The notes beneath the pieces were generated by a model, which saw only the letters and a program-made list of their open reading frames with translations, did not search any database and had not been told where the DNA came from. A program made the translations under genes and the position numbers. A DNA stretch of 64,000 nucleotides from Raillietiella orientalis (lineage: Eukaryota): positions 310,001-374,000 of the forward strand of contig JAYWIR010000074.1 in NCBI GenBank assembly GCA_036172245.1, given 5' to 3'. Each line of letters opens with the position of its first letter. Within the stretch, counting starts at the first letter, position 1. Shown here piece after piece: positions 3,186-63,132 of this stretch.

Positions 3186-3426
3186 TCCCTTCCCCAACCC
3201 CTCCCTGCTTTTGTAAATAGTGTTTTCTTTTTGCTTTTTTCTATTTGTCCCTTCCCCCTCCGCTGCCGATTCGACCTTGGGAGCCTGCGTGCTGCCCACT
3301 CGGCGAGTTCACAAGAACATGTTCTGAACACTGTAGGGGCGATAGCCCTACACTTGCTAGTTTATTTTTATTTTATTTTATTTTTTTATTAAAGAAATAA
3401 ACGCCCCGGCGCACCCGGTTGTAAAA
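1..3426 (+). mobile_element. E1: L1/Tx1-like non-LTR retrotransposon, 3' part (EN end, RT, C-terminal domain, 3' UTR); 5' end outside window
   Basis: GDFN/SDH, NWRPITVLNAD, DLRKAFD, QGDSLSPLLF, YADD, KYLG, CVRCGERETLPHLLVNC; 3' terminus AATAAA (3396-3401) + CCGG hairpin. Confidence 0.9.
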
Positions 3427-5110
3427 GCAGTGCCGACTGTTGCCACTTCATGGGGAGGGTGCGCGAGTCCAAGAGCACCGGGGGCCACTCCAGATGTTCC
3501 TTCGGAACATCCAGTAGCTCGCCCCAGCGCAAGAGTCCGTGTGGGCTGGTCCTCGCGGTCGCAGCGTTGGTGAGCTGACCCGTTCTCCAATCCCCGATCT
3601 TCTTTGCCCTGCGGGCGATGTTGTAGTTAACCTACCATTGTGGCGCCACGTCGCTGCCTAGAGGTTCCCTTATTGTAGGCGGTACCGCGGCAAGGAAGGT
3701 TCTTTGTGCCCACGCTCTCCTTCGGAGTTCCTCGACGATTTCTCGGAGCTTGCGATATGCGCGCAGCCCGACTATTGCTATTCGCTCGAGTTGCGCGCTC
3801 TGCTCCTAAGTCATCGCCCACGTTCGAAACGTTTCCTGCAGCTCCGGAAGACCGTTTGCGGGGCGTACGAAGATGGATCCCGCGTTGTTTTTGACGAGCT
3901 TGGCCGGCAAAGCTGGGTTCCGCAGTGGAACATCGGCCTTGGGAGTGCAAAGTAGGACGAGAGTCCCGCGTTGCCGGTGGCCTGTTCGACGAGGAGGCGT
4001 GCAGGGACGCATCAGAGGGTGCAACAGTTCTTTGCCATAAAGGTAATTATCCGGAACTGGAGCACAAGCTTCCGCCGATCCAGCGTTAGAAGGCCCAAAC
4101 CACCATCAAGACGCGAAGCGCACAAGTCCGCGAGACGGACTCGGGGTCTCCCTCTGCCCCAAAGGGCTATCCTCAGGAGGAACTTCGTCCTTTTCCCTGA
4201 CTTCGCTGAGGGGGGGCAAACAAAAGCAAGGGGCGAAGGAGGGGTGCTGCGAACGCGTTCCACGCCGCAGCTTGTTCCTGCAGGTAGAAACTGCCGTCCT
4301 GGAACGGACCGATCGCCGCCTGAGCCTTCTGAAGACAGCCGGACCACGCTTCCGCAGTGGAGTAGTCCCCCAACGGCACACCAAGGTACTTGAAGTACCT
4401 CACCATGAAGATCCCCAAACGGACCCATTCCTGCTGCCCTGCCCACGCCGCTCCGACTGGCATTACGGACGACTTTGCCCTGTTCACCATAAGTCCGGTT
4501 CCCCGATGCAGCAGGTCGAAGAACTTCTCGACCGCCGAAGCCGGGGCTGACATAGGGAGCAGTAGCAGAAGATCGTCCGCGTATGCCCAAACCGCAGGCG
4601 TACCGGGACAATCGCGCGGCAGGTGCGCCAGAGTCTCCCTGTACGCTCTCAGCACCAGTTCGGAAAAGGCGCTAAAGAGCAGGGGGCTCAGCCTCTCTCC
4701 CTGCCGTAAACCGCGTCGCACCTGTAAGCCGTGCACAGTCTGCCCGCTTAAAAAGACATTAATTAGCGCGTCGCGCCAACTGGAGCGCAGGTAGGTCAAC
4801 AAAGAGACCGGGAAGCCCAAGCGTTACAGAAGATTCATCAGTAGATTCTTTTCGACGCTGTCGAAGGCTTTACGCAAGTCTAGAGCGTCCGAAAGGGCTC
4901 CCTTCTCCACCCGACCGTGTCGCCTTTCACCAACGTACGCACCGGAATTCCGGCTGCTCAATAAGCCTTTTCCTTCTTAGAGCTTTAACCATGTGAAAGC
5001 GTGGAATAGGTTCGCCTCCATGCTTCGCCCGGGAACAGCATATGTTTTTTCCGGGCTGATGAAGATGTTTGCAACCCGTCCCAAACGCTCCACCCACAGC
5101 TTGGCTATCG
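3427..5110 (-). mobile_element. E2: degenerate ORF2 fragment (RT to pre-zinc-finger region), bounded by insertions E1 and E3
   Basis: ORF 4173..4820 (QGERLSPLLF, YADD, KYLG); the minus strand near 3427-3470 reads LPMKWQQSAL. Confidence 0.8.
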
Positions 5111-5111
5111 A

Positions 5112-7921
5112 CTTGGGGTGCAAACGTGTTGCTTACGCGCTCCTTTGCGCCTGTTGTAAAGCTTTCCTTTTCATTAGTGTTTGTGTGTGGTGCATCTGCG
5201 CTGTCCAATGGCACAAATGCCTGAGGACACCGCGATGGATGTCGGCAGGGAGAGGATTGTTCCTCTCCCCGACCCCATTGAGGTGAGGGCAACTGCCCCC
5301 ACGGAGGAGAAGGCAACCGCTACCTTGAAAAAGGGGGCAACCGCCTCTCCGGAAACGAAAAATACCGCCACTTCAAAAAAGTGTGCAACCGCCTTCGTGC
5401 AAGAGGCCGCAACCGCCCCTCCAAAAGTGGACAACCGCGGTCTTGGAAAAAAGCGCAAACGTCTCCTTGAAAAAGGGGACAACCGCCGCCTTGGAAAAGG
5501 GCGCAACTGCAATCTTGAAAAAGGGGTCAAACGCGTCTTCGGATCCGTTTGCTCCATCCACGAAGACCTGAAGCTCCGTGGCTGCAGCGCCATCTACTTC
5601 AGCCTTAGCAGAACAGCGCGCCTAACTTGAACAAGGATACAAGCCGTCCTTGATTTACAAGGTAGATAATCTGTTTGTGGGGAATACCACCCGCAACTTC
5701 GAGAGGGAGTTGCAGCGGCTAGATGTAAAAGAGGAGGACCTGGAAGGTCTTTCAGTGCTCAGGGGGGTTCAGCGGATGCAGCTAACTTTCAAAGATGCAA
5801 GCTTGGCTTAGCGCCTGCTAAATACCCCCTTTAAGCTGGAAGGCAGAAGGGTCTTCCCGATAACCGAGGTTCGCTCTGTGGTAGCGCATCTTACGGGAGT
5901 AACCCTCCGAATGTCCAAAAGCGGCGCAAAGGACAAATTGAGTAAATTCGGAACGGTACACGCGGTATGAACCAAGCCGAACGTCTTCCAATGTTACGGA
6001 AGATTGTTCAGTGGCATGGCCGCAGCGCGTGTGACCGTCAAGAAACACGGTAGGCTGCCCCACATACTAGACGTCGGCAACGAGGTGATCGACGTCTGGT
6101 ACGTGGGTAAGCCCAAGTACTGTGGGCACTGTGATGCAACAGGGCACCTGAAAAAACGGTGCCCTCACATCCAGTGTTTCCACTGCGGAGAGAAGGGCCA
6201 CCTCCGGAAAGTGTGCTTGAAGCGGGAGCCTCCAGCTCCTTCTGCCTTGAAAAAAGTTAAAGGGAAACGCATTGAGAAAACAAACAAGCCCACAGAAGCA
6301 AAGAAAAGGCCAAGCAAAAAGCCAGAGTTCGAATGCTCCCAGCAAACGGCGTTCGAGAAAACTCCTGACGACGCTGGTGACAACGAGGACTCGAGGAGAG
6401 CGAAGCGGAAAAGTAAAAAAAGCCGAACCACCGAAGAACCGACAGCGAAACCCTCGAAAACTTCTTTAAATAGAAGGCAACGCCACGGTTTGCTCCGCGA
6501 ATGTTCGGTCGCTTTGGAGCGAGTGGAGATCCCCGAGACCTCCACTGGGTGAGATATCCCCCGCCTCGTTGACGCCGAAGCCGTGATCGCGGAAGGCGAA
6601 CCCTCTGTGCAAACAGAGGGGGAGCCGAGAGACGCGCTCGCCGCAATCCAGGAAGCCGCCTTCCAACAGGCGGCGGAAGAGCTTGCTGCCGAGCTCGCGG
6701 ACCGTGAGAACGGAAGGCGAAAGGCCTTTCGATGGCCGGACGCGACCAGGGCACTCCCGACTGGTACCACAACCCCGGTGCCGGAAGTGCGTGCTCCTTC
6801 GCCGAGGCACCTCCGAAGAAGACTGGACGGAGGTCGTAGAATCCGAAGAGGCGCATCCCGACAAAGAAGGAGGGGGACGCACCGGCAGCCGAGGGGAAAG
6901 CCGGTATCGTGGGAAAGGAGAAATGGGTCTTCCCAGCCTCCGCTACCGAGCACCTGGAGACCAGCTTGGAGGAGGGGGAGAAGACTAGTGATTGCCCCCC
7001 CCTTCCAAACGATGGGACCTGCTAAGGAGATAACCAAGGAGCAGGAGGAGCAGACGGTTAACAACCGCTGCCCCCTGCCGTCCAGCGCTGCCGACGAATC
7101 GGCCCCCATCGAGGAGAGAGAACCGGTGCGCAGTCATCCCATTCCTCCACCCTTCCCGCGCAAACAGGTGACGGGAGCTCCATTGCAACTTTTCCAGGGA
7201 AAACACCTAGGCTCACCTGTCGCCGTCGAGTACGCGTGGCGCGTTGGTACGTGAACGGGCTGTGCGACGACTGCAACAGACGGGACACGGCCGCCACCCC
7301 GCGTGACTTCGAGCTGGCGCTCCTGCAGGAGATCCACGTGATTACCGCGGAGAACGCCCAGGAGATCGAGAGGATCCCAGGGAGTCGTCTGTTTTATAGA
7401 TACGGCGCTGGGAACACCAGTGGCGTCGCCTTTTTAATAAAACCAGCGCGACTGGCTTGCGGATAGAAAGGTACGCAAAGTGCATCTGATCGGTGGGGAT
7501 TTCAACATCCGCCTGCTCTCAGGTGTGCCTTGCGGGCAAAAAGATGCAGCCAACGAGCTGTGCGCTGCTATGCGCACGCGCAACTTGTTGGGGGACCTAC
7601 CGGAAATGGTCCAAAGCGTAGACCACGTCTTCCTTGACGACGACCTGTGCCCACGGGTCGGCAGACGAGGAAAACTTCCGTCGACGATATCGGACCATTT
7701 CCGGATGAAAGTAGAGGTTATGCCTCGCGACAAAGGATCACCATTCAGGGCGTGCCGTCTGCCGGGGGACTAGACGCGCATCTCAGATGCGGCGGAACAT
7801 CTCCGCCAAGTACTGGGTGGAGTCATCCTCCAAAATCTTCAAGACTGGGACCGCATGAAGGCCTCAATCTGCGAGTCCTGCGAGGAGTTCCCTGTAGACC
7901 GCTTGCCCCGGGGATTTCGTG
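5112..7921 (+). mobile_element. E3: 5' part of element (5' UTR, disrupted ORF1 from ATG 5208, partially deleted EN), interrupted by E4
   Basis: CGHCDATGHLKKRC/CFHCGEKGHLRKVC knuckles in ORF 6004..6552; YVNG, LQEIH, GDFN, SDH at 7240-7700. Confidence 0.85.
5289..5535 (+). repeat. 24-bp (8-aa) degenerate tandem repeat, about 10 units, in the E3 ORF1 N-terminus
   Basis: Units such as GCAACCGCTACCTTGAAAAAGGGG, GCAACCGCCTCTCCGGAAACGAAA, ACAACCGCCGCCTTGGAAAAGGGC. Confidence 0.8.
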
Positions 7922-10021
7922 TTGCCACCCGAGTACGCCCAGGGCGTTTATTGACACCCTACAAAAACGTGGAAGGAGGCCCTACTAACGGCCGCACAAC
8001 AACGGACCTGCCGAGACGCCGGGACGCAGCCCGGCGTGACGCTCCTCGGCAGTGGAGGGAAGTTTGGGAGAAAACAAAAAAAAATGAAATAAAGAAAAAC
8101 AAAAGGAGTTTGGAGGGAGGGAAAGGGATCACTATCCACTAGGAGAACGACCCCTTCTCCAGAGGATGCCCTCTAGGTCCTTCTGCCTTTGTTTCAGATG
8201 GGGCCATCTCGCAGCTCTTCGCATGAAGCTCACAGCTTTCGGGATGAATTCCCACTCGTTAACATCCACTTCTTCGTCGCAAATGTCGCTCCAGGCCGTT
8301 TCGATGCCCCGGATGCAGCAGAGATCTGCGAGGGCTACGGAGGGCTGCAGGGCGTTCCGCACGAAGAGGGGCCCAAAAACGTCTCTGGGCGCGCTGCCCA
8401 TTGGGTGCCCGAGGGTCCTGCCGAACTGTTCCCACAGGGGTCGGACAGCAGCAAAGTCGACTAGAAGTTGGGGGAGCGATTCCCGCTCTCCACACCTGGC
8501 ACACTCAGGGCTTACACTTCCTCGCGTTCAGTGGAAGCGGCGCGCGTTGCAGGGTAAACTTCAGTGCAACAGCAGCAGTGCGGACTCTTGCCACTTTAGC
8601 GGGAGAAGCCTGGATCCGATTAATACTGGGGGCCACTTGAGGTCATCCGTTGGGATGCCAAGCAGCTTGTTCTATCTAACAATTCCATGCGAAAGGGCAC
8701 TCGGGGTCGTGGCATCTGCCAGTTCGTTTATGTTCCAACCGCTCAGTTTCTTTTTCCCTGCCTGCGATCCGGCAGGAGACGTGCCACTTCGGCGTGCGGC
8801 CGCTGATTAGAGCCCTTCGTAGGTAGGGCAGCGTGAAAGCCAAAGGGGTGTTCTCTGCCCACGTGCTCCTGGCGGGACACTCCAGAGTGGTCCGTAGGGT
8901 GCAGCAGGCGTTGGAGCCGAGTCGCAGGCGGTTCCAGACACGTTAGTCTGGAGGTTTAGCCTGGCCCACGTCCCAACGGATTCCACAAGCCAAGCGGAGG
9001 AGTTGGCGAAGCTACATACCGTCCAACCGTTCTCTCACCAGGGATTCCATGCGCCTAAGGAGAAGGCTGCATCTCCTAACCTTCCGACCGGGGCACAGAA
9101 GGAAAGAAGCGAGTCCTAGCGTCCTCGATACACGGCTGTCGAGAATGCGAACCGGGACGTACCAGAGGGTGTTCCACGTCTTTGCTGCGATGGCTAGGGT
9201 GTGCCATCGCAGCTGTATGTCCATGCGCTCCAACGTCAGGAGGCCAAGACCACCGTCCCGACAAGGAGCGCATGTGTCCTTAAGAGGTGCACGAGGCCTC
9301 TTACTGCATCAGAGGGTGATGCGGAGAAGGGCTTCAGTCCTCTTCTTCAGGTCACGGAGGATGGAGCACACAAAAAGCAGGAGGCGGAAGATGGGAGCCG
9401 GGAACTCGTTACACACCGCGGCCCGTTCCGGCAGAAGGAACTTGCCTTCCAGGAACAGACCGATGGCAAACTCTACCTTTTGGAGACGACCTGACCAGGC
9501 ATCTGCGAGGCAGAATTCCCCCAACGGGACACCCAGGTATTTCAGGTACCTGACCGTGGAGATTCTCATGCGGATGCAGTCAGGCCGTCCATGCCACGTC
9601 GCAACGAACGGTACCACCGACGACTTCGCCTTGTTAACCTGCAATCCAGTCCCACGGCTCAGCAGATCCAAGAAATTCTCGACTGCGACTGCCGAGGCGG
9701 ACATGGGCAACATCAGCAGAAGATCGTCGGCGTACGCAGCTACTACAGGCGTGCCTGGGCACGAGCTAGGCAAGGCAGCCAAAGACACCCTTTACGCTCT
9801 CAGCACCATCTCAAGGTAGGTGCTGAAGAGCAGGGGAATCAGACTCTCGCCCTGCCGTATGCCCCGCGCCACCGGAAGGCCGTACGTTTTCCGCTGAAAG
9901 AGACCTTGATTAACGCATTCCGCCAGCAAGAGCGGAGGTAGGAGAAAAGAGAGGGTGGGAAGCCCATGAGACCCAGAAGCTCCTACAGTAGCTCCTTGTC
10001 CACGCAGTCGAACGCCTTCCG
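7922..10021 (-). mobile_element. E4: 3' part of element (3' UTR, C-terminal domain, RT up to KAFD), interrupted by E5
   Basis: 3' terminal motif at 7922-7952; ORF 9309..9788 with YADD and KYLG; ends at RKAFDCVDKELL. Confidence 0.85.
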
Positions 10022-12724
10022 TGCTCCAGGGAGGCCTTGTTTTCTCGTTGCTCCTCGTGCCAGGGAGTCTCTTCAAGTGCAAGCGTTGTGTGGTTCGGTG
10101 GTCGATCAGGCAGCGATGCCCAACGCGACCACCATTGTTGACCAGGGGGAGCGGCAAAGCCGCCCTTCGAGGCGATGGAGAGCCAGGGGGCGACGGCAAC
10201 GTCGCCCCCAGAAGCGATAGGGGTGGCGGCGTCCGCCCTCACAGAATCAATCACCGCTGCAGCGCTGGCGTGGAGCGCCGCTGTGTCGGTGCCATCGCCT
10301 GCAGCCGCGGCGGAATTGTAGGCCTAGGTAGAGGAGGGGTACAACCCCTCATTGTTCTACAGGGTAGGAACCTTTATTCTCTAGAGAGCGCACGCGTCTT
10401 TTCGAGGGGCGTGCGCGCTCTCGATGTGAAAGGAGGAGCTTAGCGCTATGAACATCCGCAGCGGGGGTCAGTACGTTGAGGTCATCGCAAACATGCAGAG
10501 CTCACCCAACGACTGCTTAAAACCCCCGTTCTGATGGGGACGCGCAAGCTCCTCCCTATTACGGCGGAATGCAGTATGATGGTCCACCTGTAAGGTGTTA
10601 CCGCGCGGATGCGTAAAGAACAGGTTCGCGCCGCTCTAGAACAACTTGAAACGGTGCGCGCGCAGTGGACGAAAGATAGTCCTTTCGAGGACTACACGGG
10701 GCTGCAACACGGCCTCACGGCTGCACGCGTGACCGTTCGGGAGAACTGCACTCTTCCCCACAAAATGGTGGTCGAAGGCGACACAGTCGACCTCTGGTAT
10801 GTGGGGTAGCCGAAATACTGTAGCTTCTGCAATACGTCGGGCCACCTCGAAAAGAGGTGTCTAAACGTGCAGTGCCAAGCATGCGTCACAATGAGTCACA
10901 CGAGGGATGTGTGCCCAAAAGCAGCAATGCGGCTGGTTTCCAAGAGAGACCTTGAAAAACGCGCACGGCTTCTGCAGAAAAGCCTGGCGGCGAAAGCTTC
11001 CTCGAAGGCTGTGCCACCCGCGCCCAAGACCCAGGGTTCAACCGAGACCCCGGCAAGCAACGCCGAAAAAGTTGAGGGAGCCGGCCAGGAGAACGTGTGG
11101 CAAGTGGCAACGGCCGAAAAATCAAACAAGGAGAAGAGGATGGGAAAAAAAATCGCCAACCAACAGAAGAAACAAGAGCAGGGTAGCGCGATATTTAAAG
11201 AGTGCAGCATCGTCGCCGAACGCTTTCTCGATGTTGCCGAACGCTGCAAGAAAGAACTTGCCGCTACCGACGACAACCCATCTGTTAACTCTGTCAACAG
11301 CGAGGGGAGCAAGCCGGCGGCGGCGACCGTCATCGACACCACCATCGATGACGTAGCCTCCGCGCGGGCCGGCTGAAAGCGACTGTCTGTGCGGAAAGCG
11401 AGGAGGCGGCGCGTAAAACCGACGCGACTTTCGCGCAGGTCGCGGAAGATCTTGCAGCCATGTAACGGCAGCCTGCCAAGGCCGAGAAAAAGGCCTTGAG
11501 ACGACCGGCAAAGCTGAAGGGCCCACGAAAATTTTTAGTCCGAAACCGAAGCCGGTTGTTCTACTTCCGCAGCAGCGCCGAAGAGGAAGGCTGGCAAGAA
11601 GACCGGTTGCCCGAGACGGGTCGCCCCTCCGCAGGTGGAGGAGACCATGTCCTCGGGCACGGAGGAGGAGGAAATGTGCGTTGCGCCACGCGACCCCTCT
11701 TTGATCCGTGTCTCGGAAGCCAGCCCCATGGAAGTCGCTGTGGACGACGTGCTCCCGTGTGAGCAGCCGACCGTCGCTACGGCCGCCAACAAGCCGCCTC
11801 CCGCAACGAAGGAGGCCTCCACCACCCCACAATTAACGCACCAATGCGTGGGCTCGCCTCCTGCCGCCGCTTGCGCATCACCTGTTGGAACGTCAACGGG
11901 TTGCGCGACGACGGTAAGAGGCGAGACGTAGCCGCCATACTGCGAGACTTCGACCTGGTGCTCCTGCAAGAGACGCACGTTCTCAAAGCAGAAGAAGTCC
12001 AGTTAATGGAAAGAATCGCGGAAAGGCGGCTTCTGTGGTGGAACGGAAACGACCGCTTTGGCTGAGTGGCCTTTATGCTTAAGCCAGCCGTCGACAACGC
12101 ATTGCGCAGCGTGAGGTTCGACGAGGAAGGTCGAGTTGGGCAGCTTACGTTCAAGTGGTCCGACTCGATCGATTTCGTGGTGACGAACCTGTACGCTCCG
12201 GTGAGCATCCACAGGGCCGAGGAACGCACTGCGTTCTTCGAATCCCTGCGGCGAGACTGGTTGGCTGAAGCAAGCGTACGGCGGGCGCACCTCATCGCGG
12301 GCGACTTCAATCTCCACCTGCTGGCAGGTGCGCCCAGCAGTCAAGCACAACTGGTCAACGAGTTGTGCGCAGCAATGAATGCGCGCAACTTGTTGGCCGG
12401 TGATGCCGGGAGAGATCGGAACATCGATCACATGTTTCTCGACAACCACCTGTGCACGCTGGTGGGAACTCGAGGAACGCTCCCGGCACAGCTGTCCGAC
12501 CATCCACGGCTCGTGCTCGAAACATCCACGCGACAAGGGCCCTCCCCTGAAAACGTGGCGCCTGCCGGGGGACTGGTTGCGCCTCGCAGGAGCGGCGGAA
12601 CATCCGCGCGCCTTCCTGCGAGGATTCCATCTTGAGACGCTCGCGGACTGGGACGAAATGAAGTGCTAAGCCCGCGAATCTTGCGACCAGTTTCCCCTGG
12701 AACGTTTTCCGCCGAGCTTCGGCG
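10022..12724 (+). mobile_element. E5: 5' part of a KAFD-targeting element (disrupted ORF1 about 10116-11843; EN from ATG 11844), interrupted by E6
   Basis: Degenerate knuckles at 10815-10915; MRGLASCRRLRITCWNVNG, LQETH, NLYAP, GDFN, IDH, SDH. Confidence 0.85.
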
Positions 12725-40190: not shown

Positions 40191-40199
40191 ACTCGTTGT

Positions 40200-51896: not shown

Positions 51897-51905
51897 GGTG
51901 TGGGT

Positions 51906-52000: not shown

Positions 52001-53752
52001 ATGGCAGTTGTGCCAGAGGACACCGCGATGGATGTAGTTGTGGGGGAGGCAAGTCCTCCCACAAGACCTACAGCTATGGGGGCAATAGTCCCTGGAACGT
52101 CTTCGCAGCCGGCGAAGACTTGGAGTGAAATGGTCGCCGCCCCCAGTGCGGAGGCCATGGCCGAGGAAGCCGCCTATCGGGCCTCTGAATACAAGCCATC
52201 GCTTGTATACAAGGTAGGCCCTTTGTTTGAAGGAAACACGGCGCGCTCTTTCAGCAGAGCGCTTCAAAATGCTAATGTCCGTGAGGAAGATCTGGAAGGT
52301 CTGTGCGTGCTCAGCGGGGCGCAGCGGGTTGAGCTGGTGTGCAAGAGCATCAGCCTAGCCGATCGCCTTATAAATACCCCGCTGATCATGGACGGCCGAA
52401 AGATCTTCCCGGTGTCAATGGACCACTCGGTTGTGGTCCACTTGACAGGAATATCCAAGCGCATGACGCGCACTGCAGTGAAGGACGAATTAAGCAAGTA
52501 CGGGGACGTACACGCGCTGTGGCCGAAGCCCACAATCTTTGAGGGCTACGGACGCCACTTCGGGGGCCTCGCCGCGGCACGTGTAACCCCAAAAGACGAA
52601 GCGAAGCTACCCCACAAACTTGAGGTCGCGGGAGAACCGGTAGACCTCTGGTATGCGGGCAAGCCACGGTATTGCGGCTACTGCGATGCGGTCGGACACA
52701 TCCGAAAGAGGTGCCCAAACATCGTATGCTACTTGTGCGGGGAGAAGGGACACGTCCGTCGCGTGTGCCCTAAACGTCCCACCCCGATTCCCTCGGCCGC
52801 CAAAAAGGCGCAAGGGAAACGCGCGGGGAAAGAAAAATTGCAGAACCGTGAAACTGGCCGAGATAAGCTGCCAATAACCCAAGCTCCCAGCGCGGCATCG
52901 GAGAAAAATCTTCCCGAGACCGCAGAGAGAGAACAGGGCTGGCAGCTAGTCAAAGCCAAAAAAGAGAAAAAGGACAAGCATGTCCCGAAGAAAGGAGAGA
53001 AGGCGGCGGCAGGAACAAAAGCTAAATCCGTGTCGCGCGTAAAAACTCTCCGAGAATGCACGGTTACGCTGGAGCGCATTGACGTTCCCGCCGACACCAC
53101 CGCAGGCGATACGGCTTCGATCGATTTTCACGCCGCGACAAATGCGCGCGAAAACCCACCCCCTGCTTGCGAAGAGGGTCAGCCGGACGACAAAAGCGCC
53201 GAAACGGAGGACGCAGCCTTCGAGAAGGCCGCGGAGGAGCTCGCGGCAACGCTTGCCGAACGCGAGAACCCTTCGCGAAAGGGGTTGCATAGGCCGGCAG
53301 CGGCTAAAATGGCCCCCGCAGGTGAGTCGCAACGGGAGGCCGGAAGTGCATCCTCCTCTGCGGAAGCACCACCAAGGAAAGCGGGGCGAAAATCCCAGAA
53401 ACCTCGAAGGTGCATTCCGCCTCCGCGCGAGGGGGATCCAATGGAGGAGGAACCAGTGGATGACAGCGTGGGAGCCCAAGTCGGGCATTACCCACGTGCG
53501 GAAGCCGATGAGAAGGCGACTCCAATGGAGGAGAGTAACCAGGGGTCAGCAATGCCCTCTGAAACCGCCGAACCTGAACCACCCGCACCAATGGATGTGG
53601 GCCAACAGGTACGAACAACACCCCCTTCGCACGGGCAGCCGGAGACGTCGGCACGTAAGAAGGATGGGGAGTTGGTGGGCAAGACGCCAACCCCGTCCAG
53701 CGACCCGCCCCAAAAGGTGGCGGGAGCACCACCGCCAGGTTCCCAGGAATAA
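52001..53752 (+). CDS. E16 ORF1, intact 583-aa gag-like nucleic-acid-binding protein
   Basis: Open frame 51983..53752; ATG 52001 matches the family start MAxxPEDT; CGYCDAVGHIRKRC and CYLCGEKGHVRRVC. Confidence 0.92.
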   Translation: MAVVPEDTAMDVVVGEASPPTRPTAMGAIVPGTSSQPAKTWSEMVAAPSAEAMAEEAAYRASEYKPSLVYKVGPLFEGNTARSFSRALQNANVREEDLEGLCVLSGAQRVELVCKSISLADRLINTPLIMDGRKIFPVSMDHSVVVHLTGISKRMTRTAVKDELSKYGDVHALWPKPTIFEGYGRHFGGLAAARVTPKDEAKLPHKLEVAGEPVDLWYAGKPRYCGYCDAVGHIRKRCPNIVCYLCGEKGHVRRVCPKRPTPIPSAAKKAQGKRAGKEKLQNRETGRDKLPITQAPSAASEKNLPETAEREQGWQLVKAKKEKKDKHVPKKGEKAAAGTKAKSVSRVKTLRECTVTLERIDVPADTTAGDTASIDFHAATNARENPPPACEEGQPDDKSAETEDAAFEKAAEELAATLAERENPSRKGLHRPAAAKMAPAGESQREAGSASSSAEAPPRKAGRKSQKPRRCIPPPREGDPMEEEPVDDSVGAQVGHYPRAEADEKATPMEESNQGSAMPSETAEPEPPAPMDVGQQVRTTPPSHGQPETSARKKDGELVGKTPTPSSDPPQKVAGAPPPGSQE

Positions 53753-54634
53753 CACCTGGACTCGCCTGTCGCCGTCGGATCCGCGCGGCCAGTTGGAATG
53801 TTAACGGGCTGCGCGACGACGGAAACAGACGAGATACAGCCGCCACCTTGCGAGATTTCGACCTGGTGCTTTTGCAGGAGATCCACGTGATCACCGCAAA
53901 AGACGCTCAGGAGATCGAAACGATCGCGGGTGGGCGGTTGTACTGGCGATGCGGCGCCCGCAACACTTGTGGGGTCGCGTTCTTCCTAAAGCCAGCCATT
54001 AACGCGGCCGTGAAGCACGTGCGCTTTGGGGACGACGGACGGATCGGCCAACTGATTCTCAGATGGTCCGATTCGATCGACCTCATCGTCACCAATGTGT
54101 ACGCTCCTAGCGGTAAACAGGGATACCAGCAGCGCAACGCGTTACTGGAAACCTTAAAGCGCGAATGGCTGGTGGACGCGGACGTGCGAAAGGCGCATCT
54201 GATAGCAGGGGATTTCAACGTCCGTCTGCTCTCAGATCAGCCCGGAGCACAGGGGAACGCGATCAACGAGTTGTGCGCCGCCATGCGCGCGCGCAACTTG
54301 TTGACAGAAATAAGCGGGATGGTCAACAGCGTGGACCACGTCTTCCTCGACGAAGACCTGTGCACACGGGTCGGAAAACGAGGGACACTTGGATCGACGC
54401 TGTCGGACCATTCCCGGTTAGTATTCGAGATGCGCCCGCGCGACAAGGGACCGCCATCCAGGGATTGGAGTATGCCAGGGGACTGGACGCGCCTGTCAGG
54501 AGCGAAAGAACATCTTCGCGAATTCCTGCGAGGCGTCACCCTCCAGAGTCTCGCGGATTGGGACCTATTTAAGGACTCGGTCCGGGAGTTCTGCGAACAG
54601 TTCCCAGTGCAACGTCTGCCCCGGGGATACGGCG
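53752..54634 (+). CDS. E16 ORF2 5' half (APE endonuclease), ACA start, interrupted by E17
   Basis: WNVNG, LQEIH, NVYAP, GDFN, VDH, SDH; no stop up to the insertion. Confidence 0.88.
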
Positions 54635-54665
54635 TTATAACCCGGGTACGCCCGGGGCGTTTATT
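54635..54665 (-). terminator. Conserved 3' terminus AATAAA + CCCGGG-CGTA-CCCGGG hairpin, no poly(A); representative copy
   Basis: Variant present at all eleven visible 3' ends. Confidence 0.7.
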
Positions 54666-54839
54666 ATTAAACTTTACATGCGTAGTACAAGGCCCCACCA
54701 CGGCCCTAAGCACAGGACCTGTCGGGAAACCGGGACGCAGCCCGGCGTGGCACTCCCCGACAGCGAAGGGGGATGGGGATAAGACAAAAGGTAAAATAAA
54801 AAGAAACAAACAAAAAGAAGTTGGAGGGCAGGGAAGGGA

Positions 54840-57800
54840 TCACTGCTCGCTGTGGAGAGGGCCCATCCGTCGAACGAAGCCCTCGAGGTCAGTCTCATAT
54901 TCCCCAGTTGGGGCCATCCGGCAGCTCTTCGCAAGAAGCGTTGGGCATATGGGATGACATCCCTCGCGTGTTGACCCACTCCTTCCTTGTTGGTGTCGCT
55001 CCATGCCGCCACGATGCCTCGGACGCAGCACAAGGCTGCAAGGGCTGCGGCTGGCTGCAAAGCGTCCTTCACGAAGAGGGGCCGAAGAACGCCACTAGGG
55101 GAACTGCCCGTTGGGAGACCGAGGATCGTCCCAAACCGTTCCCAAAGGGTACGAAGGGCAGCACAGTTCACAATAAGGTGGGAGAGCGATTCCCGCTCTC
55201 CGCACCTGACACACGCAGGATCCACAACTCCTCTTGTCCAGTGAGAGCGGCGTGCGTTGCAGGGTAAACCCCAATGCAACAACAGCAACGCCGACTCTTT
55301 CCACTTAAGAGGCAGGATCCTGGATTCCTGAAGAAGCGGGGGCCACTTCAGCACATCCATAGGGATGGCCAGCAGCTCGCCCCATCTTCTTAGTCCTCGC
55401 GGCTGGACGCTCGGGGTCGTGGCGTCTGCCAGTTCTCCTGTTGTCCAGCCGCTGATCAACTTTTCGCGTCCCTCGATGCAGCAGGAGACTTGCCACCTTG
55501 GCGTCCGGCTGCTGTGAAGTGCCCTCTTCAGGAAGGGCAGCGCCGTAGCTAGACAGGTCGTCTCTGCCCACGTGCATCTTGCTGGACTCTCCAGGAGATT
55601 CCGCAGCGTGCAGCGGGCGTAGGGGCCGCATCGGAGACGATTCCACGTCTCGTGGCTTGTCTTGTTAACCACTGCCCATGTTCCAATATTTTCCTCCAGC
55701 CAGGCGGGGGAGTTGGCGGGGCAGCAAACCATCCAGCTGTTCTCCTTGGCCAATGTTGCCATGCGCCCGAGCAGTAGGCCGCATCTTCGCATCTTCCGGC
55801 CACGGCTGAGAAGAAAAGACGCGAGTCCATCGCACCGGGACACACGGCTGGCCAGGAGGCGGGCTGGAGTGCACCAAGGGGTGCACCACATCTTCGCTGC
55901 GAGGGCGAGGGTTCGCCACCGCAGCTGCTTCTCCACGCGCTCCAGCGTCAGGAGGCCAAGACCGCCGTCCCGACGCGGAGCGCACAAGTCCTTCAGTGGG
56001 ACTCGGGGCCTCCCCTTGCCCCAAAGGGCGATACGGAGGAGGTCCTTCGTCCTTTTCTTGGATTCCACGGTGGGAGGGCAAACAAAAAGCAAGGGGCGGA
56101 GGATGGGGGCCGCGAAGGCGTTCCAAACCGCGGCCCGTTCCGGCAAGTGAAACTTGCCTTCCAGGAACGGGCCGATCGCCGTCTCGACTTTCTGGAGGGA
56201 GCTGGACCACGCTTCCGCAGGGGAGTAGTCCCCCAACGGCACACCAAGGTACTTGAAGCAACACGCCGTGGGGATCCCCAGACGGACCCAGTCCTGCTGC
56301 CCTGCCCACGCCGCACCTATTGGCACAACCGACGACTTCGCCCTGTTAACATGCAGTCCGGTCCCGCGGCTGAGCAGATCGAAGAAGTCTCCGACCGCCT
56401 TCGCCGGGGTGGACATTGGCAACAAGAGCAGAAGATCGTCGGCGTACGCTGCTACGGCGGGCGTGCCGGGGCACGAGCACGGCAAGGGGGCCAAAGTCAC
56501 CCTGTACGCTCTCAGCACCAACTCAAAGTAGGTGCTAAAGAGCAGGGGGCTGAGGCTATCGCCCTGCCTTATGCCCCGCCGCACCGGCACGCCATACACC
56601 TTCGGTCCACTGAAACAGACGGTAATCATCGCATTCCGCCAGCAAGAGCGCAGGTAGGAAATCAGGGAGGGTGGGAAGCCCATGCGACCCAGGAGCTCCA
56701 AGAGGAGTTCCTGGTCTACACAGTCGAACGCCTTGTGGAGATCGACTGCGAGCGCTAGGGCCCCCTTCCCTGCCCGGGGGTCCCTTCCCAGCCCGGCTGG
56801 CGGCCCCAATGTGGGGTTGCCGACTTTCCCTATCCCTTTCTTCTCTCTTCTCTGCAGGTGCACCCATGTGCTTGCGAAGAAGAGGTTGGGATCCATACTT
56901 CGCCCGGGAACAGCATAAGTCTGCTCCGGGCTAATTACGGATTCTGCCACCTGCCCCAGACGCGAAGCCCATAGCCCTGCTATCAACTTGGCGTCCGTAT
57001 TCACGATTGTGATCGGACGCCAGTTCTTCAAATTCCTGAGGTCTCCCCCTTTCGGAAGGAGCCTCACTCTGGCTGACCGAAACGAGGCGGGAACATCGCC
57101 TTCGTCTCGGATCAGCCTTGTCAGCTGAAGCAGCAGGGGCGCCAGCCCTTCCGCGAAGCTCTGATAGAACTCCGCGGGCAAGCCGTCTTCCCCTGGAGCT
57201 AACCGCCTCTTGAGCCTTTTGATACCGGCGAGAATTTCGCCGGTGGTAAAAGGCTCGTCGAGGCTTTCCATCTCTTCCTCCCCTATTGCCGGGGTGCCAT
57301 CCGGAAGCAAGCGCCGAGAGGCGTTTCGATCCGGGGGCTCCCTGGCGTAAAGGGAGGAATAAAAACTCCGCACGAGATGCCGTACCGACGCCGGGGACGA
57401 ACATTCCCGGCACTGGTCGTCCAGCAAGCTGGCCGACCCGTATTGCCAGGTTTGGCGTTTGGCCCCGGCACGGTACTCGGCCAGGCGACAAACATTAGGG
57501 GTTCTCTCGTACCTACGAGCCTGTAAATAGGCCCGATGGTTGCGAGCACCCTCGCCGAATCCGGGGGGCAGGCGATCCAGGGAAAACTGCTCACAGAACT
57601 CGCGGACCGATTCCTTAAAAAGGTCCCAGTCCTGGAGATTCCGGAGCGTGACGCCTCTAAGGTATTCGCGAAGGTGTTCCTTCGCACCTGAGAGTCGCGT
57701 CCAGTCCCCCGGCAGACGCCAATCCCTGGATGGCGGTCCTTCGTCGCGAGGCCGCATCTCGAAAATTAGCCGGGAATGGTCCGACAACGTCGACACAACC

Positions 57801-58435
57801 CTCCCCCGTTTGCCGACGCGTGAACACAGGTCAGCGTCCAGGAAGACGTGGTCGATGCTGCGGACCATTCCTTTCTCACCCGCGAACAAGTTGCGCGTAC
57901 GCATGGCAGCGCACAACTCGTTCATCGCGTTCACTTGTGTTTCCGGCTCACCTGTTAGCAGGCGGAGATTGAAATCTCCCGCTATCAGGTGCGCCTTTTG
58001 CACATTGGTATCCGCCAGCCAGTCGCGCTTCAGGGTTTCCAGCAGCCTGGTGCGGTCGCGGTAACCCTGTTTGCCGCTGGGGCCATACACGTTTGTGACG
58101 ATTAAGTCGATCGAGTCGGACCAGCTGAGAATCAGCTGACCGATCCGACCGTCGTCATCAAACCGCACGCCCTTTACGGCAGCGTCGATGGCCGGCTTCA
58201 CGAAGAACGCGACCCCGCAGGTGTTGCGGAGGCCGCATCGCCTATACAGCCGACCCCCCGCGATCGTCTCGATTTCCTGGGCGTCTGCCGCGGTGATCAC
58301 GTGGATCTCCTGCAGCAGGGCCAGGTCGAGCTCACGCAGGGTGTCGGCTGTATCTCGCCTGTTGCCGTCGTCGCGCAGCCCGTTGACGTTCCAACAGGCG
58401 GCGCGAATCCGACGGCGACTGGCGAGCCCAGGTGT
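54840..58435 (-). CDS. E17 ORF2 (APE-RT-zf), open except for a frameshift about 20 codons before the natural stop
   Basis: ORF 54674..58300 (1208 aa) extends upstream to ACA at 58435; the family C-terminus DLEGFVRRMGP..* lies in another frame ending at 54840. Confidence 0.9.
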
Positions 58436-60312
58436 TAGTCCAGGGAAAACGGCGATGCGGCGTCCGCCACCTGCTGGGACGGGACGCTAGGTGGAGGAGG
58501 AGGAGGGACAGGTACTGAAGGCACCTTTTCCTCCTCCTCCATCGGTGCCGGCGCGTCGGCCGGATCACCCGCACGTGGAGTCGCGCCTACCTTTTCGCCT
58601 TCCTCCATGGGTTCGGGCTGCTCAGGTTTCGCGACTGCAGGGAGGACTTCACCCCCCTGCTCTCCCTCCTCCATGGGGGTGACCGACTCGACGGCTTCCG
58701 GGCGTGGGTATTCCCCCTCCGGGATTCCCACGCTGCCGCTTCCTTCCGGTTTCTCCTCCTCGCTGGTGGAGGGGAGGCGCCTCCTGGGTTTCTGGGACTT
58801 GCGTCCCGACTTCCTGGGGGATGCCTCCGAGGAGGAGGATCCGCTTCCGGCCCCCAGGTCGCACTCACCTGCGGGGGCCTTCTTCGTCGGAGCCGACCTG
58901 CGTACGCCCTTGCGCGACGGGGTTTCGCGCTCGGCGAGCGTTGCTGCGAGCTCCTCCGCCGCTTTCTCGAAGGCCGCGTCTTCGCCAGGGGCGACCGTTG
59001 CCGCGGGCTGCTCCGCGACCTTATCGAGCGCGGCGTCATCGTTGACGGCGAACGTTGCCGCGGGCTCCTCCGCGACTTTATCGAGCGCGGCGTCCTGGCT
59101 GTCGGCGCGCGAGTCTCGCGTCTCACCCTCTACACGTAGATTGGGCTCGTCCACGCGAGTATTCATCGCGTCCGCATCAGCTGTTCCGCGAACATTGCCG
59201 CGGGCGGACTCGGCAGGAACGGCTAAGCGTTCCAGTGCCACCGAGCATTCGCGGAGCTTTTGTTTTGAAAGCGGCGCGGCTTTTTTCTTCTTGTTGCCGG
59301 CAGTTTTCTTCTCCGAATTTTCTTCTATCATCACCTTCTTTTTTTTCTCTTTTCTGGCCTGAACCAGCTGCCAACCCTCCTCCATTCCCGCGTCCACGGG
59401 AGCTATTTCCTCCGACGTATGTACGGGAGGAAGGGAGGCTGGCAGTTGGGAACGGCCATTTTCGCGAGCTGGTCTTTCTACCAGCTTTCCACGTTTTCCC
59501 TGCGCCTTTTTGGCGGCAGGGGGCCCCGGGGTGGGGCGCTTGGGGCACACGCGCCGAACGTGACCCTTTTCGCCGCATAGGTGGCACACAATGTTCGGGC
59601 ACCTTTTTCGTAGATGCCCTACTGCATTGCAGTAGCCACAAAATTAGCGTTTTCCCACGTACCAGAGGTCCACCGCTTCTTGGCAGACCTCCAGCTTGTG
59701 GGGAAGCGCACCACCCTCTTTCACTGTGATACGCGCCGCAGCTTGAACTCCGAAAAGGCTATTGTAGCCTTGGAAAATCGTGGACTTCGGCCACAACGCG
59801 TGCACTTCTGCGTGCTTTTCTAACTGTTCGCGAACCGCTGACCTTGTCATGCGACTGGGGATCCCAGTGAGGTGGACCACCACCGAGCGCTCCATCTTTA
59901 GAAGCAAGATCTTCCGACCATCAACGATCAGCGGGTCGGTGATCAGGTGTCGGGCCAAGGTGATATCCTTGCATACCACCTCGACCCGCTGCCCGCCGCT
60001 GAGTACGCAGAGGCCGTCGAGATCTTTTTCGAAAATATTGGCGTTCTGCAGCGCCTTCGTAAAGGCGCGTGCAGTTTGCCCATCGAAAAGGTTGCCTACC
60101 TTGTAAACTTGAGAGGATTTATACCCCGCTTTCTTGTAGGCTTCCATCTCGGCCATGGCTTCCACGCTGGGCACGGCCACCATGGCGCTCCATGACCTCG
60201 GTGTCGCCGGGGACGATTCCGGGGCGGATGCCCCTGATCCAGTAGGCTGTGGGGACGAACAAGCCTCCATCATGCCTACTTCCATCGCGGTGTCCTCTGG
60301 CAACGCTGCCAT
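58435..60312 (-). pseudogene. E17 ORF1 with a single in-frame TAA at 59644-59646
   Basis: ORFs 59644..60336 and 58435..59589 share a frame; two CCHC knuckles follow the stop. Confidence 0.88.
58925..59095 (-). repeat. 57-bp (19-aa) tandem triplication in E17 ORF1
   Basis: DAALDKVAEEPAATFAVND / DAALDKVAEQPAATVAPGE / DAAFEKAAEELAATLAERE; single copy in E16. Confidence 0.85.
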
Positions 60313-60411
60313 CGGACACCGACGATGTGCACGCACAAATCACTAAAGAAGAAAAAACACTCGCTTTGCCACGCAGGCGGAGCGCAGGAAAAGCACGTCC
60401 GCTCTCCACAG

Positions 60412-63132
60412 CGGGGTTTCGGCGAAGGGGCTCGCAACGAACGCGCGTATTTGCACGCGCGTCGTCACGAGAGGAACCCCAATGTCCGTCGCCTGGCCCA
60501 ATACCGCGCCGGAGCCGAGCGACAAGCCTGGCAATCCGGGTCAGCCAGCATGCTGGATGACCTGGGTCGGGAACGTTCGTCAGCGTCTGCGGTACGGAAT
60601 CTCGTGCGGTGTTTTTATTCCTCCCTTTACGCCAAAACGCCACCCGAACAAGACGCCTCGCGGCGATTGCTCATGAGTGGTTCCGTGGCGATAGGGGAGG
60701 AGAAGAGAGAAAGCCTCGATGAGCCTTTCACGACCGGTGAAATTCTCGCCAATATCAAAAGGCTCAAGAGGCGTAAGGCGCCAGGGGAGGACGGCTTGCC
60801 CGCGGAGTTCTTTCAGAGTTTCGCGGACGAGCTGGCGCCCCTGGTGCTCGAGTTAACAAGGCGAATCCGAGACGAAGGCGATGTTCCCGCCTCGTTTCGG
60901 TCAGCCAGGGTGAGGCTCCTCCCGAAGGGAGGAGACCTCAGGAAACTTTGCAACTGGCGTCCGATCACGATTGTGAACACGGACGCCAAGTTGATTGCCG
61001 GGCTGTGGGCGTCGCGATTGGGGCAGGTGTCCAATTCCATAATTAGCCCGGAGCAGACAAACGCTGTTCCCGGGCGAAGTATGGAGGACAACCTCTTCTT
61101 CGCGAGCACATGGATGCACGCGCAGCGGAGTAATAAAGAAGGGGAAGGGAAAATTTGCAACCCTACTTTGAAGCCGCCAGTGGGACAGGGTAGGGAACCT
61201 CATGCAGGAAAGGGGGCCTTAGCGATCGCAGTCGACCTCCATAAGGCATTCGACTGTGTTGACCAGGAACTCCTCTTGGAGCTCCTGGGTCGCATGGGCT
61301 TCCCACCCTCCTTGATTTCTTACCTGCGCTCTTGCTGGCGGAACGCGATAATCTCAATTACTTTCAGTGGACAAAAGGTGTATGGCGTGCCGGTGCGACG
61401 GGGCATAAGGCAGGGCGACAGCCTCAGCCCCCTCCTTTTTAGCACCTACGCTGATTTGGTGCTGAGAGCGTACAGGGTGACTTTGGCACCCTTGCCGAGC
61501 TCGTGCCCCGGCACGCCAGCCGTAGCGGCGTATGCCGACGATCTTCTGCTCCTCTTACCTATGTCCACCCCGGCGAAGGCGGTCGGAGATTTCTCCGACC
61601 TGCTTAGCCGTGGGGCCGGATTACAGGTTAACAGGGCGAAGTCGTCAGTGTTGCCAGTTGGAGCGACGTGGGCAGGGCAGCAGGACTGGGTCCGTCTGGG
61701 GATCCCCACGGTGAGGTGCATCAAGTACCTCGGTGTGCCGTTGGGGGACTTCTCCCCTGCGGAAGCGTGGTCCAGCTGCCTCCAAAAAGTCGAGACGGCG
61801 ATCGGCCCGTTCCTGGAAGGCAAGTTTCACTTGCCGGAACGGGCCGCGGTTTGGAACGCCTTCGCGGCCCCCATACTCCGCCCCTTGCTTTTTGTTTGCC
61901 CCGCCCCCGTGGAATCGAAAAAGCGGACGAAGGACCTCCTCCGCATCGCTCTTTGGGGCAAGGGGAGGCCCCGAGTCCCTTTGAAGGACTTGTGCGCTCC
62001 GCGTCGGGACGGCGGTCTCAGCATCCTGACGCTGGAGCGCGTGGAAATCCAGCTGCGATGGCGGACCCTCGCCACCGCAGCGAAGATGTGGAGCACCGCT
62101 TGGTGCATTCCGGCCCGTCTCCTGGCCAGGCGTATGTCCCGCTGCGAAGGACTCGCATCGTTTCTTCTGTGCCCTGGCCGGAAGATTCGAAGATGCGGTC
62201 TACTGCTCGGCCTCATGGCAACCCTGGCAAAGGAGAACGACTGGATGGTTTGTGGCCCTGCCAACTCCTCCGCTTGGCTGGAAGAGACTGCTGGCACCTG
62301 GGCCAAGCTGAACCAGAGGTGCGAAGACCAGATGAACTGCCTGCGAGTCGGCATTTACGCCCGCCGAACTCTCCGTGAAATACTTGAATTTCCACCGAGT
62401 TGCACGTGGGCGGAAGGCACACCCCTTGTTACGGCGATGCCCTTTCTCCAAAGGGCGCTTCACGAAAGCCGGAAGCCAAGGTGGCAAGTCTGCTGCCGTA
62501 TCGCGGGCAGAGAGAAGACGATGAGCGGCTGGACCATGGGAGAGTTGACAGATGCAACGACCCCTAGTATCCAGCCGCGTGGATTAAGAAGATGGGGCGA
62601 GCTGCTCGGCATTCGATTGGATGACCTGAAGTGGCCCCCGGTTCTACTTGGATCCAGGATTCTTCCCCTGAAGTGGCAAGAATCGGCGCTTCTGTGGCTG
62701 CATTGGGGTCTACCCTGCAACGCGCGCCGCTTCCACTGGACGCGGGGAAGAGTAAATCCTGCGTGTGCCAGGTGTGGGGAACGCGAGTCGCTCCCCCACC
62801 TCTTAGTTAAATGCCCTGCCGTCCGGATTCTTTGGGAACGTCTTCAAACGGCACTTGGGATACCGGATGCAGGCAATGGTGAATGTATCTTCAGTCTTGT
62901 CTTCGTGCGGGACGCCCTCAGTCCAGCTGCAGCCCTGGCAGCACTTTGCTGCATTCGTGGTATAGTGGCGGCCTGGACTGATGCCGAAGATGAAGACTGC
63001 ATCGTGAGGAATGTCATCGAGTATGCTTCTCGCTTCCTGCAGAGAGCTACCCGATGGACCCATCTAGGAAGGATGAAAAAGGAACAAGAAGGCATCCTGC
63101 AAAGGATGGGCCCTCCCAGCAGTTTTCTGTGA
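60412..63132 (+). CDS. E16 ORF2 3' half (RT and C-terminal zinc finger), open frame
   Basis: ORF 60325..63132 resumes at RGFGEGARNE; DLHKAFD, QGDSLSPLLF, YADD, KYLG, CARCGERESLPHLLVKC. Confidence 0.92.
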   Translation, partial: RGFGEGARNERAYLHARRHERNPNVRRLAQYRAGAERQAWQSGSASMLDDLGRERSSASAVRNLVRCFYSSLYAKTPPEQDASRRLLMSGSVAIGEEKRESLDEPFTTGEILANIKRLKRRKAPGEDGLPAEFFQSFADELAPLVLELTRRIRDEGDVPASFRSARVRLLPKGGDLRKLCNWRPITIVNTDAKLIAGLWASRLGQVSNSIISPEQTNAVPGRSMEDNLFFASTWMHAQRSNKEGEGKICNPTLKPPVGQGREPHAGKGALAIAVDLHKAFDCVDQELLLELLGRMGFPPSLISYLRSCWRNAIISITFSGQKVYGVPVRRGIRQGDSLSPLLFSTYADLVLRAYRVTLAPLPSSCPGTPAVAAYADDLLLLLPMSTPAKAVGDFSDLLSRGAGLQVNRAKSSVLPVGATWAGQQDWVRLGIPTVRCIKYLGVPLGDFSPAEAWSSCLQKVETAIGPFLEGKFHLPERAAVWNAFAAPILRPLLFVCPAPVESKKRTKDLLRIALWGKGRPRVPLKDLCAPRRDGGLSILTLERVEIQLRWRTLATAAKMWSTAWCIPARLLARRMSRCEGLASFLLCPGRKIRRCGLLLGLMATLAKENDWMVCGPANSSAWLEETAGTWAKLNQRCEDQMNCLRVGIYARRTLREILEFPPSCTWAEGTPLVTAMPFLQRALHESRKPRWQVCCRIAGREKTMSGWTMGELTDATTPSIQPRGLRRWGELLGIRLDDLKWPPVLLGSRILPLKWQESALLWLHWGLPCNARRFHWTRGRVNPACARCGERESLPHLLVKCPAVRILWERLQTALGIPDAGNGECIFSLVFVRDALSPAAALAALCCIRGIVAAWTDAEDEDCIVRNVIEYASRFLQRATRWTHLGRMKKEQEGILQRMGPPSSFL

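Follow-up and report, generated by a model that had tools for sequence, protein, structure and literature searches.

The nearest known counterparts of the elements treated here are Zepp, of Chlorella and Coccomyxa, and ZeppL, of Chlamydomonas and its relatives, which are L1-type long interspersed nuclear elements (LINEs) that target their own copies and form nested clusters at putative centromeres (PMC3446292, PMC8226300, PMC9940879). As far as the accessible text of these papers goes, Zepp-type clusters are thought to make up algal centromeres, and the GC content of Zepp is 61% in Coccomyxa (PMC3446292, PMC8226300). How such clusters are built up is poorly described. A nucleotide-level picture is offered by the window analyzed here, a stretch of 64,000 nucleotides from Raillietiella orientalis (assembly GCA_036172245.1, contig JAYWIR010000074.1, positions 310,001 to 374,000 of the forward strand), which is made up over its whole length of a single type of mobile element, apparently an L1-type LINE, in copies lodged within one another. 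The window has a GC content of 55–62%, and insertion into existing copies is seen in its 19 elements, 9 levels of nesting and 3 head-to-tail junctions. Its likeness to Zepp and ZeppL, the closest known kind, lies in self-targeting L1-type elements, dense nested and tandem clusters, and a GC richness relative to the genome; the comparison is with published descriptions, in the portions available, rather than with sequences. The window differs in having several diverged lineages, many full-length copies, insertion at exact codons and a strictly antisense orientation, whereas the Zepp and ZeppL arrays are described as mostly 5'-truncated 3' ends, with orientation and target position unmentioned in the accessible portions. 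No orientation rule for nested LINEs was found in the literature searched, although the original Zepp descriptions may already contain one. So far as checked, what is new beside the known nested LINE clusters is the exactness of the sites, their division among lineages, the frequency of full-length copies and the rule of polarity.

Site-specific LINEs with an apurinic/apyrimidinic endonuclease (APE) include R1, TRAS/SART and the Tx1 group (Tx1L in Tx1D, Keno and Mutsu). The elements in the window are like these in being of the APE type, in using one short target in a conserved multicopy sequence, at the same nucleotide and in one orientation, and in having specificities that differ between related lineages. 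Their target, however, is LINE coding sequence, including motif A of the reverse transcriptase (RT), rather than ribosomal DNA (rDNA), small nuclear RNA genes, telomeric repeats or a DNA transposon. Furthermore, rDNA-specific LINEs sit in the sense orientation and are co-transcribed with the rRNA, whereas the window elements are all antisense to their hosts. HeT-A, TART and TAHRE, in the part of the source available, likewise form head-to-tail LINE arrays by repeated targeted addition at one place (PMC10088271), but the arrays in the window lie inside open reading frame 2 (ORF2) of another LINE, apparently by way of a regenerated internal target, and not at chromosome ends.

The initial annotation had listed 12 places at which an insert runs opposite to its host. 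All 12 are real junctions, exact to the base, at which the terminus or a broken end of one element meets the interior of an opposite-strand copy, as established from the junction sequences, a tblastn map and a scan for the 3' end motif. A 13th antisense nested junction, 47470/47471, lies between B14 and B15 (blocks are numbered as in Table 1) and was absent from that list, as were the closing ends at 26040, 38036/38037 and 60424. (A twin-priming inversion was rejected as the origin of the B14/B15 arrangement, as B14 and B15 cover partly the same element coordinates and come from different lineages.) There is no clear case of a sense-oriented nested insert in the window. The observation was thus understated, with 13 nested junctions and none clearly sense, while its weight was overstated, because site-specific integration explains the repetition. 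At all 13 junctions the sense strand of the host runs into the complement of the 3' end of the insert (e.g., at 54635), a geometry that places the priming nick on the coding strand of the host every time. Three same-strand junctions, also missing from the list, are of a different type: at 18379/80, 29614/15 and 63361/62, the 3' end of one element is followed by a remnant of the site-1 target, CGCCGAA.CC, and then by the 5' end of the next. These head-to-tail arrays presumably reflect re-use of the target regenerated at the 5' side of the earlier insert, and their copies are still antisense to the shared host.

Where do the elements insert? At least five related lineages can be told apart by pairwise identity in the RT, endonuclease, 5' and 3' regions; in the RT region, nucleotide identities are 62–94%. 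The claim that the junctions involve six target sequences was correct in its count, but two of the six take 8 of the 12 junctions. Site 1, which directly follows the endonuclease domain at ORF2 codon ~248 (host sense ..GGATTCGGCG/A.., the slash marking the junction), is entered by lineage A, and the 3' ends found there are of A type (..GGGTGATAA and variants). Site 2, at ORF2 codon ~523 in RT motif A, ..LHKAFDCVD.. (host sense ..AAGGCGTTCGA/C..), is entered by lineage B, with B-type ends (..GGTTGAAA, ..GAGTAAAAA). Lineage D enters at the ORF2 start, lineage C at codon ~308 and lineage E at codon ~1007. At sites 1 and 2 the same nucleotide position has been hit in different hosts that are only 59–77% identical to one another, a pattern that, judged from the alignments, makes these two sites the targets of independent, site-specific insertions in one orientation. 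Targeting by an RNA guide, through a resemblance between the 3' tail and the target, was considered and rejected: for each of the 12 tail/flank pairs, at least 122 of 500 shuffles scored as high as the real pair (2 of the 12 windows used were offset by a few bases). Immunity of lineage B at its own site 2 found no support, as its sequence there differs little from that of a targeted host.

Three inserts have both their ends in the window, and each of them is bordered by a target duplication of 12–14 bp. R2 and R1 form their 5' junction through host-derived sequence on the RNA. The complete inserts in the window are similar in carrying 11–14 nt of target-like sequence at the 5' end, two positions off the local target. 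At B10, it is the 3'-side copy of the duplication that deviates, the 5'-side copy agreeing with the lineage-B relatives B14 and B8. Because the two copies mismatch, and because of this match at B10, the 5' copy may travel with the element RNA or form by annealing instead of being a copy of the local target. The window elements differ from R2 and R1 in that no self-cleaving ribozyme was found at the 5' ends (the only match in an Rfam scan of the whole window was an irrelevant miRNA, E 0.55), and in that their antisense orientation bars co-transcription with the host sense RNA.

The insertions are independent events. When paralogous junctions are compared, identity is 89.4% and 88.3% on the insert side, against only 64.5% and 59.2% on the host side. 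Since the inserts are so much more alike than their hosts, the same lineage has repeatedly entered different host lineages at the same codon, and segmental duplication of one nested unit is excluded by the same identities. DNA contigs from run X1, found by shared words (share 0.19) and compared with positions 43400–63390, also bear on these structures. One contig joins 54627 to 60418, as in a B17-like copy without B18 (an empty site), with the break falling within the duplicated 13 bp; another joins 63367 back to 51879, a tandem junction; and a third spans the junction at 48913. Of the 343 contigs, 37 are at least 99% identical to the window, 116 are 95–99% and 190 are 90–95% identical. Because most are thus only 90–99% like the window, X1 contains numerous diverged copies of these lineages, or stems from a relative. 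One X1 joint links opposite strands, 52661 to 59655.

The map on which these results are based was made by tblastn with ORF1 and ORF2 of the copy at 54635–60424 (B18) and by blastn with its DNA, supplemented by self-comparison of the window, by tblastx where nucleotide matches were absent, and by the 3' motif scan. It partitions the window into 19 elements, B1–B19, in 21 blocks. The long open frames contain the Pfam domains Exo_endo_phos, RVT_1, zf-RVT and zf-CCHC. In ORF2, an AP-endonuclease (Exo_endo_phos, E 5e-14 and 6e-08) is followed by RT (RVT_1, down to E 3.5e-23) and by a C-terminal zf-RVT motif that is weak and below the cutoff. Upstream lies ORF1, of ~600 aa and with two CCHC knuckles (zf-CCHC, E 5e-06), which is unbroken in most copies, as seen in B17a, B3, B8 and B11. 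In the reference copy, B18, ORF2 is open over 1208 aa, and ORF1 is interrupted by a single in-frame stop. The closest proteins in a collection of 5.8 billion sequences are L1/LINE-1 ORF2 proteins, at 22–30% identity; among these 88 matches there is none above 30% and no named algal relative. A scan of prokaryote genomes with ORF2 gave 44 pattern matches, with no relative confirmed among them, and three metagenome loci that match the 3' end motif were put down to chance, none having a match to any LINE protein.

Twelve 3' termini lie in the window, 10 found by motif on both strands and 2 more by reading the sequence. All have AATAAA, then a GC-rich palindromic motif (a CCCGG..CCGGG near-palindrome), then 2–5 A (or ..CAT), and a long poly(A) tail is absent from all 12. 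The short A-rich tail varies by lineage: ..GATAA, ..GGCAA or ..GACAT in A, ..TTGAAA in B, and ..GGCAAA or ..TATAAA in C. A consensus 3' hairpin is predicted, with weak support from covariation (a compensated change in one of seven pairs). The so-called stringent LINEs recognize a 3' stem-loop, and the form of the 3' end in the window resembles theirs. By their ORF2, their ORF1 and their target duplications, though not by their poly(A), the elements class as L1-type (APE-bearing) retrotransposons of the kind without long terminal repeats, and they would be expected to integrate by target-primed reverse transcription.

The nest is at least nine levels deep. In its left part, B2 holds B1 and B3, B3 holds B4, and B4 holds B5, whose site 1 holds a minus-strand array made up of B6, B7 (itself holding B8) and the A2 part of B9. 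In the right part, the hosts follow one another from B13 through B14 and B15 to B16, each containing the next; B16 in turn contains both B17 and B19, and B18 sits in B17. The explanation that seems preferable, by a small balance of probability, is that this is a self-feeding cluster of L1-type LINEs, whose site-specific lineages insert antisense in each other, and that the common polarity needs no dedicated selection. Each lineage would integrate site-specifically at a conserved coding spot of other copies. The priming nick would be cut, at every site, in the coding strand of the host copy, with the second nick 12–14 bp away, and because of this the newcomer would always come to lie antisense to its host. 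Since sites 1 and 2 are present in every newcomer, the next insertion would flip the strand again, and strict alternation through nine or more levels would follow automatically. The target regenerated at the 5' side of an insert could be used again, giving head-to-tail arrays whose members run antisense to the host they share. Established are the anatomy of the nest, the recurrence of the sites, the duplication of the targets, the independence of the insertions and the strand of the nick; the specificity presumably resides in the endonuclease of the element or in its integration complex, and the common polarity of the six or seven sites can be a property inherited by related lineages, seen in few trials. 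On this account each of several related lineages owns a landing site in the conserved coding sequence of the others, in one case the catalytic RT motif itself, and insertion with one polarity creates the next target, which explains how a cluster can grow without spreading into genes.

The middle of the window is rearranged. From its 3' end to about position 30950 (~1.3 kb), B9 matches B17b (lineage A2) at 91–99% identity in windows of 200 nt; over the next ~0.9 kb, to about 31860, it matches B8 and B14 (lineage B) at 79–88% in such windows, and the switch falls at homologous ORF2 positions. B9 is thus probably a chimera, made by recombination or by a template switch of the reverse transcriptase. 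The segments 31861–32111 and 38037–38261 are contiguous in B14, with a 15-nt overlap, and 40007 is the 5' end of the array, where it meets site 2 of B12 in a junction of the canonical lineage-B form. B5 and B12 are probably the 5' and 3' parts of one plus-strand host with minus-strand inserts at sites 1 and 2; the stretch between these sites would have been lost by recombination between same-strand inserts, or by template switching in reverse transcription. Beyond B12, at 40532/40533, the 3' end of this plus-strand block meets the ORF1 interior of B13, also on the plus strand, with no spacer. The same target of B4 may have been entered a second time here, by an insert truncated at its 5' end.

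How much does the uniform polarity mean? The initial annotation reasoned that a fixed orientation at each site is to be expected from sequence-specific integration, and that only the agreement across sites needs a further cause, which is sound. Because orientation is fixed per site, the trials are the sites and not the junctions, and 12 of 12 shrinks to six or seven independent choices. The appeal to selection or mechanism consequently holds only in part: the repetition is accounted for by site-specific integration, and what is left is a modest agreement across six or seven sites, suggestive but not compelling. The trials may not even be independent, because the lineages are related and polarity may be inherited with their integration machinery. 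Several points nevertheless weigh against a polarity that needs no special cause, and against the scheme of site-specific integration itself. Treated as coin flips, one polarity at all sites has a two-sided p of 0.031 for six sites and 0.016 for seven, the seventh being the site in ORF1, which is uncomfortable for chance alone. The junction at 40532/40533 may be the 3' junction of a sense-oriented insertion; if so, seven of eight sites agree, with p about 0.07. Five of the seven sites have been used only once, so that specificity rests on sites 1 and 2; no motif common to the target sites emerged on comparison by eye; and the sequence specificity of the endonuclease is deduced from the insertions. 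The two copies of the target duplication differ at two positions in all three inserts, where a simple staggered cut predicts otherwise. Finally, the reconstruction of 29615–40532, with B5 and B12 as one host and B9 as a chimera, is itself inferential.

Is the common antisense polarity, then, an inherited accident, a strand rule applied at insertion, or the outcome of selection? It is possible, though doubtful, that the shared polarity is a functional rule, comparable to the sense polarity of rDNA-specific LINEs, under which lineages with private landing codons in ORF2 complete their insertion only from a coding-strand nick, or are expressed only when antisense. In the version concerned with expression, an element would be active only if it is antisense to its host and hence co-oriented with the next outer layer. 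If such a rule held, the result would be a self-renewing alternating array, whose convergent transcripts could feed silencing based on double-stranded RNA (dsRNA), or centromeric chromatin, and a rule of strand choice would provide a natural example of strand-selective target-primed reverse transcription.

A bias acting at the time of insertion is rather unlikely. Here, integration would succeed only, or mainly, where the primer nick lies in the coding (non-template) strand of a host that is being transcribed, either because that strand is exposed in transcription or R-loops, or because transcription-coupled repair aborts intermediates on the template strand, and only lineages whose target reads on the coding strand would persist, giving the shared antisense polarity. 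The primer strand is indeed the coding strand at 13 of 13 nested junctions, and the suggestion of the initial annotation that strand choice at priming is involved fits this geometry; the signal, however, is small, with only six or seven effective trials, and the strand is already fixed by exact site specificity. A bias of this kind also presupposes transcribed host copies, for which the sequence gives no sign. In the accessible part of one study, human L1 shows a comparable antisense preference in transcribed genes, which is put down partly to the process of insertion and explained by transcription-coupled nucleotide excision repair (PMC5717806). That bias, however, is partial and statistical and concerns non-specific insertion into host genes, whereas in the sample given by the window the polarity is absolute, insertion is at exact sites, and the part of the "gene" is played by another retrotransposon.

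The rearranged middle bears on survivorship, which is unlikely. Sense nests are direct repeats and would collapse by unequal recombination, whereas antisense nests are inverted repeats and would stay visible. B9, which switches from A2 to lineage B at ~30950, can be read as a same-strand recombinant, and the host segment between sites 1 and 2 is gone there; mosaic copies occur, such as B5, of which the 5' 600 nt are 86% identical to B8 but the endonuclease region only 64%; and 40532/33 is shaped like the 3' side of a sense insertion. Unequal exchange has been described in the ZeppL centromeres of Chlamydomonas, in the portion of the report available (PMC9977147). On the other hand, host and insert are often only 60–80% identical, which makes them a poor substrate for homologous recombination, the B9 chimera is equally explicable by template switching in reverse transcription, and a polarity fixed per site would make no sense insertions at these sites in the first place.

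Selection for a product of the arrangement is improbable. Convergent transcripts and kilobase-long inverted repeats would yield dsRNA and small RNAs, and with them silencing or the marking of heterochromatin or a centromere, which corresponds to the dual-strand cluster proposed in the initial annotation. Long inverted homologies are present (e.g., 55137–57562 against 60415–62840, 2426 nt at 83%, B18 against B17b). In the parts of the literature available, the nested clusters of Zepp and ZeppL coincide with putative green-algal centromeres (PMC3446292, PMC8226300), and ZeppL associates with CENH3 (10.1101/2025.03.28.645958). However, the window carries no sign of transcription or small RNAs in its sequence, and selection at the level of the cell is unnecessary for a polarity set by the integration machinery. 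The weakest explanation is that misassembled repeats, or one nested unit multiplied by segmental duplication, stand for only a few events; it is hardly credible, for although there are junction-spanning self-matches (11849–17051 with 53757–58965, and 22191–26531 with 47470–43129), their insert sides are 88–89% identical against 59–65% for the host sides, the junctions fall at exact conserved positions with 12–14 bp duplications, and the X1 contigs show the empty site, the tandem junction and a bridged 48913. Taken as a whole, the interpretation offered by the initial annotation is partly supported; escape from transcriptional interference, dsRNA silencing and a piRNA/siRNA cluster, which it also suggested, are candidate causes.

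Table 1. Blocks, junctions and target duplications of the nest. Codons are those of ORF2; sites 1–3 are recurrent or named target positions; Y is a lineage-B element interrupted by B10.
Feature	Position	Strand	Lineage	Description
B1	2..3426	+	E	Codon ~91 to 3' end ..AATAAACGCCCCGGCGCACCCGGTTGTAAAA; runs off window start
B1 right end	3426/3427			3' end adjoins B2 at codon ~1007
B2	3427..5111	-	B (B-like)	Outermost host fragment seen; codons ~1007 down to ~438
B2 flanks	3427, 5111			Broken on both sides by + copies
B3	5112..7921	+	perhaps A3	5' end, ORF1, codons 1-248; gap at codons 38-90; broken at site 1
B4	7922..10021	-	A3	3' end to codon ~523; in site 1 of B3; broken at site 2
B5	10022..12724	+	B (5' region)	B-type 5' end, ORF1, codons 1-249; in site 2 of B4; broken at site 1
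B6	12725..18379	-	A1	Full length; 3' end at site 1 of B5
Target remnant CGCCG	18375-18379			End of B6
B7a	18380..20483	-	A1	3' end of B7 to codon ~522; head-to-tail behind B6
B8	20484..26040	+	B	Full length; nested in B7 at site 2
B7b	26041..29614	-	A1	B7 from codon ~526 to 5' end, with CGCCGAAGCCC prefix
B9	29615..32108	-	A2 (3' part), B	Chimeric block: lineage A2 part, lineage B part, Y fragment
Y	30950-32108, 38037-40007	-	B	Element interrupted by B10
Y fragment of B9	31861-32108	-	B	Codons ~85-7 of Y, after internal deletion
B10	32109..38036	+	D	Full length; nested in Y at ORF2 start (site 3)
B11	38037..40007	-	B	5' part of Y (end of ORF1, ORF1, 5' end); 5' end at site 2 of B12
B12	40008..40532	+	C	Remnant; codons ~523-583, internal deletion, C-terminal end of ORF2 and 3' UTR, ending ..GGGTATAAA
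B13	40533..43616	+	D	Within ORF1 (about residue 200) to codon ~525; broken at site 2
B14	43617..47470	-	B	3' end (at site 2 of B13) to end of ORF1
B15	47471..48912	+	D	Mid-ORF1 to codon ~308
B16	48913..51896	-	C	3' end (at codon ~308 of B15) to codon ~246; broken at site 1
B17a	51897..54634	+	A2	5' end, ORF1, codons 1-249; in site 1 of B16
B18	54635..60424	-	A1	Full length; nested in B17 at site 1
B17b	60425..63361	+	A2	B17 from codon ~249 to 3' end
B19	63362..64000	+	A1	A1-like 5' part, with CGCCGAATCCC prefix; head-to-tail behind B17; runs off window end
Site 1 junctions	7922, 12725, 51897, 54635			n = 4
Site 2 junctions	10022, 20484, 40008, 43617			n = 4
Codon ~1007 junction	3427			n = 1
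Codon ~438 junction	5112			n = 1
ORF2 start junction	32109			n = 1
Codon ~308 junction	48913			n = 1
B18 target duplication	54622-54634 / 60412-60424			13 bp, 2 mismatches
B8 target duplication	20470-20483 / 26041-26054			14 bp, 2 mismatches
B10 target duplication	32097-32108 / 38037-38048			12 bp, 2 mismatches

The order of strands from B1 to B19 is + - + - + - -(+)- -(+)- + + - + - +(-)+ +, the inserts that split or interrupt an element being given in parentheses. Besides their nested insertions, some copies have suffered internal deletions: B12 passes from codon ~583 to the C-terminal end of ORF2 (40188–40200), Y is without codons ~85–474 (31860/31861), and in B3 codons 38–90 are gone at 7444–7448. 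B3 also has a 5' end without the CGCCGAA prefix found on other A-like copies. Its join with B2, at 5107–5116, has a 5-nt overlap, CTTGG, which is also present at the same place in the homologous, uninterrupted B18, and the join reads as a microhomology junction at a non-canonical site.

The coding capacity of individual copies varies as well. Two lineage-B copies, B8 and B14, are probably inactive, B8 despite its full length: in B8, RT motif A (23999–24100) reads ..KAFN.. in place of ..KAFD.., so that the presumed catalytic Asp is replaced, and in B14 (45600–45850) a stop codon precedes the motif by three codons. In B18, what appear to be two upstream ORFs are a single ORF1 split by one stop at 59644–59646 (minus strand), where the copy reads ..WYVGKR* against ..WYVGKPR.. 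in other copies, and stops at or near the same spot of ORF1 are found in several other copies (B5 and B10, ..G*..).

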